A DNA stretch of 64,000 bases from Spirochaetota bacterium. GTDB taxonomy: Bacteria > Spirochaetota > UBA4802 > UBA5550. How positions within the stretch are numbered: position 1 is the first letter of the stretch; each line of letters begins with the position of its first letter. Both the position numbers and the translations under genes were made by a program. The stretch lies in NCBI GenBank assembly GCA_022709405.1, contig JAKLIV010000002.1, positions 5,700 through 69,699 on the forward strand, written 5' to 3'. Positions 868-6,921 of this stretch are shown here, piece after piece. The notes below the pieces were generated by a model. It saw nothing but the letters and a program-made list of their open reading frames with translations. It had not been told where the DNA came from and made no database searches.

Positions 868-1551
868 GTGAACATGAAAAAAGCGATTACCCTGCTCATC
901 GTCTGCGCGGCCCTGTATCTTCCTTCGGCGGTCAGGGCGGATGAACCGCAGCCCGACCCCAATGTCTCTTTCGGATTCGTCCTTACCGGCGGATACACCA
1001 GCATATGGCAGCGTATCGGCTCCCAGAACGACTGGGGCTGGGGCTACCTCGCAGGTGGAGGTTTCGTTTTCGAAAAGATGTTCACCAACCGGCTCGGGAT
1101 CCATACCGGCCTCTCCTATATCTATTCCATGACGAACATCGAACCGGGCGACGACATTCATGCCCAGGCGACCATGCATTCCCTCATGGCCCCGCTGTAC
1201 CTGATCGTGTCAGCCAACAGGGGCATATTCTCTTTCAACTTCCTCACCGGCCTCGACATAATGGTCATTACCGACTGTTCGATGCACGGGGATTCCGACA
1301 TGCTGCCGAACAAGACCGCTGCAGTGACGCAATACCTGTCCCCCGCCCAGTTCGGGCTCGCAGCCGGGTTCAATTTCAAGTTCCGGGTCGCACACTATGT
1401 CGATTATTATTTCGGCTTCATCGGGGATTTCTACGTCTCGAGCTTCGAGCGCCAGCATGAAGGTTACGATTCGTACGCGCATATCTACGACGGCCGCCTC
1501 ATGACCGGCGTGCTGTTCAGGACCAACCTGTTTCCCATGCCTGAAAAATAG
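868..1551 (+). CDS. secreted outer-membrane beta-barrel-like protein (OmpW/OmpA-TM-like), hypothetical
   Basis: Signal peptide MNMKKAITLLIVCAALYLPSAVRA. Aromatic-rich alternating pattern. Starts 4 bp after the bactofilin stop, so probably co-transcribed. Confidence 0.55.
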   Translation: MNMKKAITLLIVCAALYLPSAVRADEPQPDPNVSFGFVLTGGYTSIWQRIGSQNDWGWGYLAGGGFVFEKMFTNRLGIHTGLSYIYSMTNIEPGDDIHAQATMHSLMAPLYLIVSANRGIFSFNFLTGLDIMVITDCSMHGDSDMLPNKTAAVTQYLSPAQFGLAAGFNFKFRVAHYVDYYFGFIGDFYVSSFERQHEGYDSYAHIYDGRLMTGVLFRTNLFPMPEK

Positions 1552-1815
1552 CGGCCGATACGACGAAACGATCTTCACCATCCGCAATTGCCGCAATCTC
1601 ATCGCCCGGTTGGGAGCAACCGGGTATAAACCGCCGGTTCTGATTCAGTTTCCGCACAAGATTGACACTGTTTCCATGAACTCCGGTTTCCGGGATTTAC
1701 TTGACGCGCGCAATGTGGATTGATAAATTAAGCTGTTCCGGATGCATCCAAGCATCCGACTTCGGTCTGACCGTACGATATGTACAATGTAACTATCTTT
1801 TCAAGGAGATCCAAA

Positions 1816-3663
1816 ATGAAGAGAACAGCCAGCTTTCTGATCCCGTGCACCGTGTTTATATTGTCCTTATTTTTGCTTTCATGCGACGATGATTCGGACA
1901 AGAAATCCTCTTCGGGATTGAAATGGGCTTCAGGGTATCCGACCGCGGCGGCAGTTGTTGATACGGTAAGCATCACAGGCCAGGACATCTCGTCTACCGC
2001 GAGAACCAATAAAGACTGCACCGTTTATTATGTTGCAGTATCATCCGGCGATCCCGCGCCGTCGGCAGACCAGATAATCGCAGGTCAAAACGGTTCCGGT
2101 GCGGCCGCATTCAATTCAGGCAATCAGGCAATAACGGCCCTGACGAACACGGTCCTGACCATGAGCTCTTTTCCCTATTCAACAGCATATGACATATATA
2201 TCATAGGGGAAAATACAACCCTGAACCAGCGTACCGCAATAAAAAATTACACGGTCGCTATCGGCGAACGGAATATTATTTTCGTAAGAAAAACCGGAAA
2301 TGATTCCAATACCGGCCTGGATCCAATGTTTCCGAAACTGACAATTCAGGCGGGAGTAACAGCAGCCGCGGCCCTTACCGGTTCATTCAAAAAAGTTTAC
2401 GTAGCAGCAGGCACATATGGCGAATCCGTCAGCCTTACCGGCGGCGTTTCCCTGTATGGCGGTTTCAGCGCAGCAGACTGGAGCGACCGCGACAGGGTGA
2501 ACCGGTCAAATGCGACTTACCAGACAATAATCCAGGGACCTGGCACAAGCCAGAGCGCCATTGGGGTTACCAGCACATCCACGGGCGATAGTATCGTCGA
2601 GGGTTTCACCATCCAGAGCACCCATGCTAATAATTCATACGCTGTTAACATATACGATGTCTCCGCCACGGTCAGATACAACACCATTGACGGCGGCCCC
2701 GGCGATAATGAGTCGAATGGTATATACATCCATGGCGACAACGCTGAGACCGTTATCGAACACAATATGATAAACGGCGGCAGTTCTACAAGCTCCACAT
2801 CAAACGGCATCTACATCGAAACATCAGCCGACCAAGTCATCACCGACAATACCATCGACGGCGGATCCGGCGCAAACTCTTCACACGGTATAACCATTAC
2901 CTATCCCCTGGCAAGCACCTCTCTTATTGCCCGCAACACCATAAACGGTGGATCTAATTCAAACAGCACCTACGCAATCGCGATTTATAATAATAATATC
3001 GTGGGAACTTCCGCACCGATGATCCACTCCAATGACATTGACGCAGGCGACGGCGAAAACTGCCGGGGTATCTTCTGCTACGGTTCTGCAGACGGATATA
3101 CGGTAGCCCCAATAATATGTAACAATATCATCAAAGCGGTTGGCACACATCCCCGGGCGCTGCTCTTTCAGGATGTCGACGGGAGCCCTTTGGTTTACAA
3201 CAACACCATATCAACTTCAGGGACCGACCAAGCCAACGTAATTTCATCCATTGGATCAGTTAACCAAGCATCTTCTCCCGATATCCGAAACAACATTATA
3301 ATTGGCGATTCATCGCTTTGCGTGGCGTTTTATGAGGAAAACAACAGCAACAGTCTTTTTTCATATATCATGAACAATGATATTTACGACTGCACATGCA
3401 CTATAATAACAGCCGCGACTGCGTATTTTGAACTTACCGACTTGAATGGACTCCGCTCCGGGATTTCAGCTAATATATCCGTTGATCCTGCTCTCGATGC
3501 CGATCTGGCTCCGACCGTATCCACTCCCATATCGGTGAACGCCGGCGCCCTCGACCTTTCAGGAGTTGCGATCTTCCCTGAAAACGCAGATGGCGATAAG
3601 ATAGATAAAATCGGCGGAGATCGTACTCCCGGCTGGACCATGGGGGCATATGAAATAGACTAG
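1816..3663 (+). CDS. lipoprotein with right-handed parallel beta-helix repeats (pectate-lyase-like/DUF1565-type), paralog 1
   Basis: RBS aaggag then ATG at 1816. Lipobox LLSC followed by DDDSDKKSSSG. Repeated NTIDGG/NGIYI beta-helix rungs. About 40% identical to the downstream paralog. The ORF track's upstream extension to 1780 is unlikely to be translated. Confidence 0.75.
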   Translation: MKRTASFLIPCTVFILSLFLLSCDDDSDKKSSSGLKWASGYPTAAAVVDTVSITGQDISSTARTNKDCTVYYVAVSSGDPAPSADQIIAGQNGSGAAAFNSGNQAITALTNTVLTMSSFPYSTAYDIYIIGENTTLNQRTAIKNYTVAIGERNIIFVRKTGNDSNTGLDPMFPKLTIQAGVTAAAALTGSFKKVYVAAGTYGESVSLTGGVSLYGGFSAADWSDRDRVNRSNATYQTIIQGPGTSQSAIGVTSTSTGDSIVEGFTIQSTHANNSYAVNIYDVSATVRYNTIDGGPGDNESNGIYIHGDNAETVIEHNMINGGSSTSSTSNGIYIETSADQVITDNTIDGGSGANSSHGITITYPLASTSLIARNTINGGSNSNSTYAIAIYNNNIVGTSAPMIHSNDIDAGDGENCRGIFCYGSADGYTVAPIICNNIIKAVGTHPRALLFQDVDGSPLVYNNTISTSGTDQANVISSIGSVNQASSPDIRNNIIIGDSSLCVAFYEENNSNSLFSYIMNNDIYDCTCTIITAATAYFELTDLNGLRSGISANISVDPALDADLAPTVSTPISVNAGALDLSGVAIFPENADGDKIDKIGGDRTPGWTMGAYEID

Positions 3664-3685
3664 CTTTTCTTACTCGATCCAATAA

Positions 3686-3717
3686 CAAAAAACCCCGCTT
3701 TCGCGGGGTTTTTTGTT
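3686..3717 (+). terminator. rho-independent terminator (ccccgc-tttc-gcgggg + T7)
   Basis: GC stem 3693-3708 followed by a T-run at 3709-3716, directly after the stop of paralog 1. Confidence 0.7.
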
Positions 3718-5897: not shown

Positions 5898-5918
5898 CCA
5901 TTCATTTCGATCACCAAA

Positions 5919-5948
5919 CAAAAAACCCCGCGGAAGCGGGGTTTTTTG
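5919..5948. terminator. bidirectional rho-independent terminator between beta-helix paralog 2 and etfA
   Basis: A-run, stem ccccgc-ggaa-gcgggg, T-run. It serves the convergent genes on both strands. Confidence 0.7.
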
Positions 5949-5970
5949 TTATTGGATTCTGATATTGTTA

Positions 5971-6921
5971 TCAGAGGTTTTCCATCAGCTGGGGAACGAC
6001 TTCGAAGAGGTCCGCAACGATCCCGTAAGCCGCTATGTTGAAAATAGGAGCTTCAGGGTCTTTGTTGATCGCGACGATGCATTTCGATCCTTTCATGCCG
6101 GCAACGTGCTGGATGGCGCCGGAGATGCCGATCGCCATGTACAGGTCCGGAGTGACGGTCTTGCCCGACTGTCCGACCTGGCGTGCCGCCTCGGTCCAGC
6201 CGGAGTCAACGACCGGCCTGGATGCGCCATACTCGCCGCCGAGCTTCTTGGCAAGGGGGATGATGACGTCTTTGTACTTGTCGCCGTCCTTGAGTCCGCG
6301 GCCGCCGGATACGATTATCTTGGCCTGGGAAATGTCGACAGCGCCGGCCATGGTGGCGATGACTTCCTTCACTTTAGTCCTGACGTTGCTTATCGATGCG
6401 GATACCGCTGTTACAGCGCCTGCTCCGCCTGCTGCTTCCATTTCGTACGCGCCTTTCTCGAAAGTGGCGACGAATTTGTCGGTCTTGACCTTTTTCTGTT
6501 CCTGGATCTTTCCATTGTAGGTGTTCCTGGTGAAAACAGGCGCTCCGCCTTCAACAGCAACCTTGTTGCAGTTGGAAACGATGCCGGCGCCCATCGCCAT
6601 CGCGACTTTGGCCGCGAAGTCAACGCCGTCATAGCTCTGGGCTATGAGAACGCCTTTGACGTCCTGGGAATCGATAACGGCCTTGGCCGCCTGTGCATAT
6701 CCGTCCGAGGTGTATTTCTCGAGAGCGGCGTCTGCCACGCAGAATACCGTGGGGATATATTTCGCAACTTCCTTGGCGATCGAATCATCTTTTCCAAAAC
6801 AAGCTGCGGCAGGCTCGCATCCCATCGCCGAGGCGATCGTTTTCGCGGCCTTGCAGAGTTCAAGCGTACCGTCGCTTAACTTTCCGTCTCTGTGTTCAGC
6901 AATTACTAATATTTTAGCCAT
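5971..6921 (-). CDS. etfA: electron transfer flavoprotein alpha subunit
   Basis: 316 aa, [15 protein letters not shown]... Typical EtfA N-terminal and FAD-binding C-terminal regions. Confidence 0.9.
   Translation of the reverse strand: [316 protein letters not shown]

Follow-up and report, generated by a model that had tools for sequence, protein, structure and literature searches.

Stacking of two anciently diverged lipoprotein genes between an outer-membrane protein gene and etfA, probably by exchange at a 7-bp microhomology, in an uncultured Spirochaetota lineage

A 64,000-nucleotide stretch of DNA from a Spirochaetota bacterium (GenBank assembly GCA_022709405.1, contig JAKLIV010000002.1, positions 5,700 to 69,699 of the forward strand; hereafter the window, in whose own coordinates all positions are given) carries two divergent predicted lipoprotein genes, lipo1 and lipo2, in tandem between a gene for an outer-membrane beta-barrel protein (OMP) and etfA. 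Each gene has its own upstream spacer (igA and igB, respectively) and its own terminator, and between the two units a copy of the 3′ end of etfA is fused to a copy of the 3′ end of OMP. A preliminary description of the locus took this junction as the fossil of a tandem duplication, the copies of the lipoprotein gene having since been driven apart by diversifying selection. In our analysis the fusion is confirmed, with slightly corrected coordinates, as is its tandem-duplication geometry; saturated synonymous sites, the phylogeny of the lipoproteins, the orthology of igB and a sister lineage without the lipo1 unit beside OMP argue against a duplicated gene driven apart. The explanation that we favour, and hold to be reasonably probable, is that a single illegitimate exchange, mediated by microhomology and anchored by homology, stacked two pre-existing variants of the slot between OMP and etfA. 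Recombination between related strains, and not the divergence of a gene copy in place, is the probable reason why the two variants occur together.

An etfA remnant is fused to a copy of the OMP tail

The etfA-derived part of the junction region matches functional etfA at 79 of 81 aligned positions (3760-3840 against 6106-6186). The preliminary description had correctly noticed most of this segment (3761-3840, at 97%); the remnant, however, starts from 3737, where the stop codon and final codons of etfA are retained (TCAGATGTTTTCAT, against TCAGAGGTTTTCCAT at 5971-5985), and a repeat finder lengthens the match to 3740-3840 against 6086-6186, at 92% identity. Positions 3737-3750 resemble 5971-5985 and positions 3751-3840 (30 codons) resemble 6097-6186; the parent segment (etfA 5971-6186) has 216 nucleotides and the remnant 104, a net internal loss of 112 nucleotides and not the 105 bp first proposed. 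The loss is flanked by short TTTC(C)AT repeats, and what is left can still be translated in the etfA frame. The OMP-derived part (3834-3877) is a copy of the last 44 nucleotides of OMP (1507-1550), identical at 43 of them; it had been described, with the right origin but too short, as 40 nucleotides from 1511-1551. Its sole mismatch to the functional OMP gene, an A at 3851 in a synonymous ACA codon, is the allele of a sister lineage (contig L050; see below).

The 104-nucleotide remnant and the 44-nucleotide copy are joined through a shared heptamer, GGCGTGC (3834-3840), one base longer than the hexamer gcgtgc originally reported. GACC precedes the heptamer on both sides (GACC-T-GGCGTGC versus GACC-GGCGTGC), and by our own calculation the chance of a microhomology of at least 7 bp in a random blunt join is about 3e-4. 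The joint thus runs from the etfA tail (…GACCTGGCGTGC) into the OMP tail (GGCGTGCTGTTC…), the end of one unit meeting the beginning of the next at a short shared sequence; this is exactly the joint of head-to-tail units composed of OMP tail, spacer, lipoprotein gene, terminator and etfA tail, as had been recognized at the outset. Each junction segment is present exactly twice in the window, with no further copies and no sign there of a generic repeat, a possibility that the preliminary description had raised against itself, and none of 100 shuffled controls gave any match to the segments.

The remnant and the OMP-tail copy are 93-98% identical to their parent genes. Within the 104 nucleotides of the remnant there are seven private substitutions: four at 3751-3759, by the edge of the deletion, and others at 3742, 3772 and 3799. 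The four that fall within 9 nucleotides and adjoin the edge of the 112-nucleotide deletion suggest one complex, error-prone repair event rather than independent decay; the T at 3751 is also the state in contigs L051 and L020. At every assessable remnant site contig L049, from the window's own lineage (see below), has the state of functional etfA. Polarizing the substitutions against outgroups was uninformative, the etfA tail being too conserved (98% identical even in the 94% sister lineage), and an early idea of using QHL in the remnant as a marker of a foreign allele was dropped. A templated patch insertion, as in microhomology-mediated break-induced replication, was also considered as the origin of the remnant and rejected, as it leaves unaccounted for the precise coincidence of the end of the OMP-tail copy with the OMP stop codon.

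The junction is found in independent assemblies

A chimeric or collapsed contig join near 3840 had been named as the artefact that could produce such a junction. However, the same 33-nucleotide junction string is spanned in 16 fetched loci from at least nine independent assemblies, of different samples and produced by different assemblers (MEGAHIT, SPAdes, JGI pipelines and an NCBI metagenome-assembled genome, or MAG): JGI 3300010429, 3300009771 and 3300009838; ENA ERZ27257455, ERZ27257456, ERZ795054, ERZ795055 and ERZ761563; and NCBI GCA_035453685.1. Across the locus identity is 99.9-100%. In favour of an artefact, contigs of several low-coverage assemblies are broken close by, five independent ones stopping at 3607-3620 and two more starting at 3626 and 3677, just before terminator 1. 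The break that was traced, the end of Logan contig L048 at 3829, lies at the start (3800) of a 41-nucleotide exact repeat plus 30 nucleotides. Assuming k=31 for Logan, an assembly would break at 3829; strain heterogeneity was accordingly discarded as the cause of that end, which fits a k-mer break at the repeat (3800-3840). No repeat explaining the breaks at 3607-3677 was found, and these may reflect a coverage dropout beside a strong hairpin, or strain heterogeneity at the 3′ end of lipo1. We give an assembly artefact next to no credence.

lipo1 and lipo2 are old, distinct variants

The two lipoproteins had been put at about 40% identity, which is borne out by BLASTP (43%) and over aligned codons (46%). 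Across the 595 aligned codons the third positions agree at 34.5%, the same codon is used at just 41% of the residues conserved between the two, no 60-nucleotide window exceeds 82% identity, and synonymous divergence (dS) is saturated (undefined by NG86, 2.5 by LWL85). For lipo2 and P0002, the single slot gene of a related species represented by contigs L020 and L023, dS is 1.6-1.9, about equal to that of etfA between the window and L020 (1.2-1.6), and lipo1 is more distant from both members of this pair. In a neighbour-joining tree of the 15 closest family members, the clade (lipo2, (P0010, (P0002, P0003))), in which P0003 is a close homologue of P0002, has 100% bootstrap support and lipo1 lies outside it; lipo2 is the positional orthologue of the single slot gene in the related species. 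The search for further copies of the lipoprotein family elsewhere in the window found none.

The spacers tell the same story as far as lipo2 is concerned. igA and igB cannot be aligned with each other, in agreement with the early remark that the 5′ flanks of the two genes are unrelated. igB aligns with the OMP-lipoprotein spacer of L020, the motifs TTGACAAAAC and TTTCAGGAG being common to both, and is 82% identical to the spacer of L050, and it is orthologous to the spacers of both contigs; igA aligns with no relative's spacer, its 54% identity to that of L050 being background level. Because lipo2 groups with P0002, igB aligns with L020 and dS is saturated, the split between lipo1 and lipo2 must predate that between the window's species and the species of L020, and the two genes were already old, distinct variants when the junction formed.

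This bears directly on duplication in situ. If the two units descended from one by tandem duplication, their parts should have diverged to a matching extent, whereas in the interior dS is saturated and the spacers are unalignable, and the flank remnants are 93-98% identical; the comparison of dS with the divergence of the fossil segments, proposed in the preliminary description as a check, thus yields ages that do not match. We reject a history of duplication followed by divergence because selection at the protein level cannot explain saturated synonymous sites and unrelated spacers beside a non-coding remnant that has changed so little. The geometry of the junction is that of a tandem duplication, and between close lineages the occupant of the slot does change much more quickly than the genes around it (for the lipo2-type gene of the sister lineage, 55-85% identity in the 5′ parts and 72.5% at the 3′ end, versus 97% for etfA). 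Nevertheless, lipo2 is nearer to another species' orthologue than to lipo1, at full bootstrap support, and a sister lineage 93-94% identical to the window is without the lipo1 unit beside OMP, which would make any duplication younger than that split. We therefore consider in situ duplication, followed by extreme divergence under diversifying selection with the junction remnant left nearly pristine, highly improbable.

Relatives carry a single cassette

In L020 and L023 the neighbourhood is kept (L28, LysR, YlbF, bactofilin, OMP, slot, etfA, etfB, proS), with protein identities to the window of 91% for etfA and 54% for OMP, and P0002 is the only lipoprotein between OMP and etfA. A closer sister lineage, about 93-94% identical to the window, was found by cluster look-ups; the evidence from it is split over two contigs, L050 showing the OMP side and L051 (GCA_034677795.1) the etfA side. 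In L050, OMP is 93.5% identical at the nucleotide level and its stop codon is directly followed by the igB-type spacer and a lipo2-type start, with neither a lipo1 unit nor a remnant between OMP and the lipo2-type gene. L051 reaches 94.2% identity over 10 kb, and its etfA lies next to a terminator and the 3′ end of a lipo2-type gene. The window's own lineage is represented by L049 (Logan, ERR7569998; 99.6% identical over 1434-2767), in which the order is OMP tail, igA, lipo1, terminator 1 and an intact etfA 3′ end, and which has neither the junction nor the 112-nucleotide loss. Exact-protein look-ups with etfA, lipo2, OMP and lipo1 returned the same clone only and no other configuration; contigs L043 and L044, examined as possible variant configurations, differ in gene calling only.

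Over 260 nucleotides of beta-helix coils the lipo1 gene of L049 (1335-1592) is only about 78% identical to the window (2768-3028), with a 3-nucleotide indel, while identity is 99.6% to one side of this patch and 98.7% to its other side. It is a mosaic piece from a third lipo1-type allele, and its resemblance to lipo2 is no greater. The rapid divergence of the slot gene between the 94%-identical lineages makes the locus hypervariable, but through old alleles and their exchange, not through post-duplication divergence.

The same relatives bear on a further alternative, an ancient tandem pair that predated the split from the L020 species, had its flank remnants held similar by repeated gene conversion and lost lipo1 precisely in the relatives. 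The old split between lipo1 and lipo2 would suit it, and the conservation of the etfA tail in the sister lineage means that high identity alone is no proof of a young remnant. However, the remnant is non-coding and the conservation of its parent gene gives it no protection; conversion tracts would have had to stop exactly at the edges of the 44-nucleotide and approximately 90-nucleotide segments, the adjoining terminators being 82% identical; and L020, L023 and L050 all show OMP followed by an igB-type spacer with no trace of a remnant, which would require independent precise losses. An ancient pair is thus very improbable. A three-event scenario, in which an ancestral lipo1-lipo2 pair was duplicated and then suffered two precise deletions, was rejected as unparsimonious.

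Sister-lineage bases in the flanking genes

Compared with the window, four contigs of its clone obtained from other samples show 38 single-nucleotide polymorphisms (SNPs), almost all tightly clustered, and at 37 of the 38 the base is that of the sister lineage (Table 1). The patches fall in the bactofilin gene, OMP, etfA and further downstream. They may be short homologous imports; at minimum, they show that the two lineages co-occur in the same samples, in the very genes that border the slot. A transfer between strains would fit the divergent cassettes, the sister-type base at 3851, these SNP patches in the flanks and the single-cassette contigs L049, L050 and L051.

A single illegitimate exchange could have stacked the two variants

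Since at the time of the join lipo1 and terminator 1 were followed by etfA, and igB and lipo2 were preceded by OMP, both cassettes held the same slot, on two DNA molecules. Similarity between the two corresponding haplotypes, H1 (OMP-igA-lipo1-terminator-etfA) and H2 (OMP-igB-lipo2-terminator-etfA), breaks off at the final base of the OMP stop codon (TAG versus TAA) and resumes in the terminator and etfA, a border pattern that would be expected of alleles exchanged through conserved flanks. We propose the following course of events. Closely related lineages would carry different, anciently diverged alleles of a lipoprotein with a fibronectin type III (FnIII)-like domain plus a beta-helix in the slot, each allele with its own upstream spacer and promoter and all with a bidirectional terminator in common. 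H1 and H2 would have met in one cell, where a single illegitimate join at the 7-bp GGCGTGC connected etfA of H1 to the OMP tail of H2, while ordinary homologous recombination in a conserved flank would have resolved the opposite end; the event would be one of homology-facilitated illegitimate recombination (HFIR) or of unequal crossover. Its product, in which lipo1, terminator and etfA tail are followed by OMP tail, igB and lipo2, would mimic a tandem-duplication joint with both genes intact. The trapped, non-functional etfA tail would then have lost 112 nucleotides between the TTTC(C)AT repeats and gained a few substitutions. That join and stacking were one event, which haplotype was the recipient and by what route the DNA entered are matters that we infer from this footprint. 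The fallback of gene conversion or cassette replacement, offered in the preliminary description beside diversifying selection, came near the mark in its second part.

A two-step history would yield the same end product. In it, one haplotype, most plausibly the lipo2 unit, would have been tandemly duplicated at GGCGTGC, and one copy would then have been replaced by the lipo1 allele through crossovers in OMP on the left and, on the right, in the etfA-tail remnant, then 216 nucleotides long. Tandem duplications at microhomologies are frequent in bacteria, and this history shares with the single exchange both the junction and the need for a lipo1 haplotype at the slot. Homologous exchange is seen in the flanking genes, and the right-hand crossover is geometrically allowed because terminator-1-type sequence runs to 3741. 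On the other hand, two events are needed, with an unstable, perfect 2.3-kb duplication lasting until the replacement, and none of the contigs sampled showed a genome with near-identical twin copies. The mirror version, with the second copy replaced, is nearly excluded by the sister-type base at 3851, which leaves at most 17 nucleotides of homology for the left-hand crossover. We judge the two-step history unlikely, if less so than the other alternatives.

Several further observations weigh against a single stacking exchange. The H2 parent, with the window's own lipo2 directly after OMP, was not found among the contigs sampled, and in those parts of the sister-lineage cassette that were seen, identity to lipo2 is just 55-85%. 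Instead of being an unstacked parent, L049 could have lost the stack later, through homologous recombination of the remnant with etfA. In support of this concern, the seven private substitutions in the 104 nucleotides of the remnant exceed what the 0.4-1.3% divergence between L049 and the window would predict. Lastly, the SNP patches could in part be consensus chimerism in assemblies of mixed-strain metagenomes.

Microhomology joins in HFIR typically measure 3-10 bp. A G+C-rich microhomology of 7 bp on one side and, as the other border, conserved OMP or etfA sequence in which the crossover is indistinguishable are what the window shows. HFIR has one homologous and one illegitimate end (PMC3240628), and is known from Acinetobacter, Streptococcus pneumoniae, Pseudomonas stutzeri and E. 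coli conjugation (PMC3240628; de Vries & Wackernagel 2002 and Prudhomme et al. 2002, as cited in PMC5361080). The stacking exchange proposed here is similar in that one end would rest on homology (OMP or etfA) and the other be illegitimate (GGCGTGC), with about 2 kb of non-homologous DNA gained without loss of recipient genes. It differs in having been deduced from a natural footprint in an uncultured Spirochaetota population and not observed experimentally, and in that the illegitimate join falls within the gene at the opposite border of the slot, which makes the product mimic a tandem duplication.

HFIR, or a mechanism similar to it, has also been proposed for the stacked orphan modules of type VI secretion system (T6SS) and Rhs loci (Kirchberger et al. 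2017, PMC5361080). The orphan arrays of T6SS effector-immunity, Rhs and contact-dependent inhibition (CDI) loci resemble the present locus in having divergent alleles in tandem downstream of a conserved anchor with gene-end remnants between the modules, and in that homologous replacement is the commoner and illegitimate stacking the rarer outcome (PMC5361080). In contrast, each unit here carries a whole surface lipoprotein gene, complete with promoter and terminator, instead of a toxin tip or an immunity gene, and there are only two units, both intact, with no evident selective rationale such as retained immunity. In the transformation-induced merodiploidy of S. pneumoniae, an exogenous fragment pairs at an alternative site and a head-to-tail duplication arises by unequal crossing-over (Johnston et al. 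2013, PMC3784515). The head-to-tail product of unequal crossing-over at an alternative pairing site is common to both cases; there, however, the repeats are long (IS861 copies) and the duplications span 100-900 kb (PMC3784515), whereas here a 7-bp microhomology delimits a 2.3-kb unit, and the two units are different alleles.

Both lipoprotein units have promoter-like sites and terminators of their own

A promoter scan found a promoter-like site in igA (Table 1) and a promoter-like TTGACA-17-AAAAAT at 3980-4008 in igB, and each gene is followed by a terminator, so that both would be independently expressible. The terminator copy noticed early on downstream of lipo1 is present as a strong hairpin at 3677-3724. 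Both terminators fold into strong bidirectional hairpins (-28 to -32 kcal/mol, z -5 to -8); for terminator 1 the values are -28.8 (+ strand) and -31.8 (- strand) kcal/mol, with z about -8. Terminator 2 matches terminator 1 at 82% in direct orientation and at 40 of 41 positions when reverse-complemented; the latter match (3677-3717 against 5917-5957) takes in the loop (TTTC against the reverse complement of GGAA) and a 10-nucleotide extension, ATCCAATAAC. One copy of the hairpin appears to have been inverted relative to the other. The terminators were tried as ancestry markers and set aside as uninformative, being mosaic and palindromic. An Rfam search of positions 1-8000 returned nothing.

The lipoproteins have a predicted FnIII-like domain and beta-helix

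By eye, both products have a lipobox with the invariant Cys of bacterial lipoproteins (…FLLSC/DDD in lipo1 and …ILAGC/DDS in lipo2, the slash following the Cys), and lipoboxes are present in some homologues too (LGGC in P0002, LAAC in P0008). An AlphaFold2 model of lipo2, built with 21 family sequences (pLDDT 89, pTM 0.82), shows a disordered lipoprotein tether, an FnIII-like beta-sandwich at about residues 40-145 and then a long right-handed parallel beta-helix, with regular E-E-E coils predicted over residues 185-523. Together with the lipoboxes, this confident model bears out the early guess of a beta-helix lipoprotein. Foldseek matched the model to beta-helix enzymes of families GH28, PL6 and PL9 at probability 1.0 (best 2uvf, E 1e-6), with a TM-score of about 0.26 and 11-12% sequence identity. 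Searches against Pfam-A (E up to 10) and NCBIfam (E up to 1) gave no match for either lipoprotein; distant homologues carry PF13229, PF05048 or PF07602. In its predicted FnIII-like sandwich followed by a right-handed beta-helix, lipo2 is like the GH28 exopolygalacturonase 2uvf of Yersinia, which has an N-terminal FN3 domain, and like the PL6 and PL9 lyases; at such low identity and TM-score it is also unlike them, and an adhesin or other non-enzymatic role is equally possible. Surface glycan binding, glycan cleavage or a function as adhesin would fit the predicted fold.

The slot between OMP and etfA varies across the clade

More distant Spirochaetota and Leptospirales MAGs retain the gene orders bactofilin-OMP and etfA-etfB(-proS), and what lies between the two blocks varies. 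The slot is practically empty in L034 and L027; in L033 it encodes an ankyrin-repeat protein of 506 residues, and in L031 its 6.7 kb of cargo include an ankyrin gene and some 5 kb of extra genes. It holds genes for a putative membrane-anchored protein and a putative multi-pass membrane protein in L025, one lipoprotein gene in L020 and L023 and two in the window (1552-5970). The extra genes of L031, named by eye from their translations, include a possible Fur-like regulator and several P-loop ATPase-like open reading frames (ORFs). Other members of the lipoprotein family occur elsewhere in unrelated contexts. The gap between the convergent OMP and etfA genes is a variable slot, or hotspot, in this Spirochaetota clade, and igB-lipo2 is its ancestral type in the wider clade. 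A stronger version, in which the gap is a dedicated cassette-capture hotspot where stacking is recurrent and selected and builds or reshuffles a repertoire of surface proteins, seems to us doubtful. Were it true, such reshuffling could serve, for example, against recognition by phages or predators, and the flank remnants would be recombination handles for the gain, loss (as in L049) or swap of units.

Layout of the locus

The features of the locus and the SNP patches are listed in Table 1. The lipoprotein genes and their spacers (1601-5800) have a G+C content of about 0.46-0.52, against about 0.55-0.60 in the flanking housekeeping genes. Over the remnant and terminator (3670-3792, - strand) a 40-residue gene is annotated by JGI, and the ORF list has entries of 58 and 67 residues; the ORFs called there are most likely spurious, sitting as they do in remnant and terminator sequence.

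Table 1. Features of the OMP-etfA locus and sister-type SNP patches in same-clone contigs (window coordinates)
Feature	Position	Strand	Remarks
Bactofilin gene	504-863	+	PF04519
OMP, outer-membrane beta-barrel gene	874-1551	+	conserved left border of the slot; PF13568, E 2.6e-8; repeat family D8
igA, spacer 5′ of lipo1	1552-1815	+	264 nt; promoter-like site 1701-1729
lipo1	1816-3663	+	615-aa predicted lipoprotein, FnIII-like plus beta-helix family; lipobox LLSC
Terminator 1	3677-3724	none	bidirectional hairpin with 22-nt arms, A/T tracts; inverted repeat I4
Remnant region	3737-3877		etfA remnant plus OMP-tail copy
etfA 3′-end remnant	3737-3840	-	repeat family D3, alignments, translation
Junction microhomology GGCGTGC	3834-3840		common to etfA remnant and OMP-tail copy
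Rest of OMP-tail copy	3841-3877	+	ends at second base of OMP stop codon
igB, spacer 5′ of lipo2	3878-4058	+	181 nt; ribosome-binding context TTTCAGGAG
lipo2	4059-5897	+	612-aa predicted lipoprotein; lipobox LAGC
Terminator 2	5907-5963 (hairpin 5917-5950)		bidirectional, serves convergent lipo2 and etfA; repeat families D4, I1, I18
Functional etfA	5971-6921	-	conserved right border of the slot; PF00766 and PF01012; convergent with lipo2
etfB	6940-7710	-	
proS	7882-9591	-	
SNPs in L042	563-734		n=10; sister base 10/10
SNPs in L044	389; 1056-1074		n=5; sister base 4/5
SNPs in L014	6289-6376 (5) and 10 further downstream		n=15; sister base 15/15
SNPs in L016	6541-6622		n=8; sister base 8/8

Implications

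The underlying mechanism is already known, and the general significance of the locus is modest. If the stacking exchange that we favour is correct, the window holds an unusually legible natural footprint of how a hypervariable surface-protein locus in bacteria can gain a second, divergent allele and keep the resident one, with the joint, the microhomology, the single-cassette relatives and the sister-lineage patches all readable from public metagenomes of an uncultured lineage. It also carries a caution for work on paralogues: a duplication-type junction need not mean that the genes beside it are in situ duplicates, and claims of post-duplication selection based on dN/dS would mislead here. 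Finally, it draws attention to a small, unannotated family of lipoproteins with a predicted FnIII-like domain and beta-helix, a fast-evolving occupant of a conserved slot in digester-type Spirochaetota.

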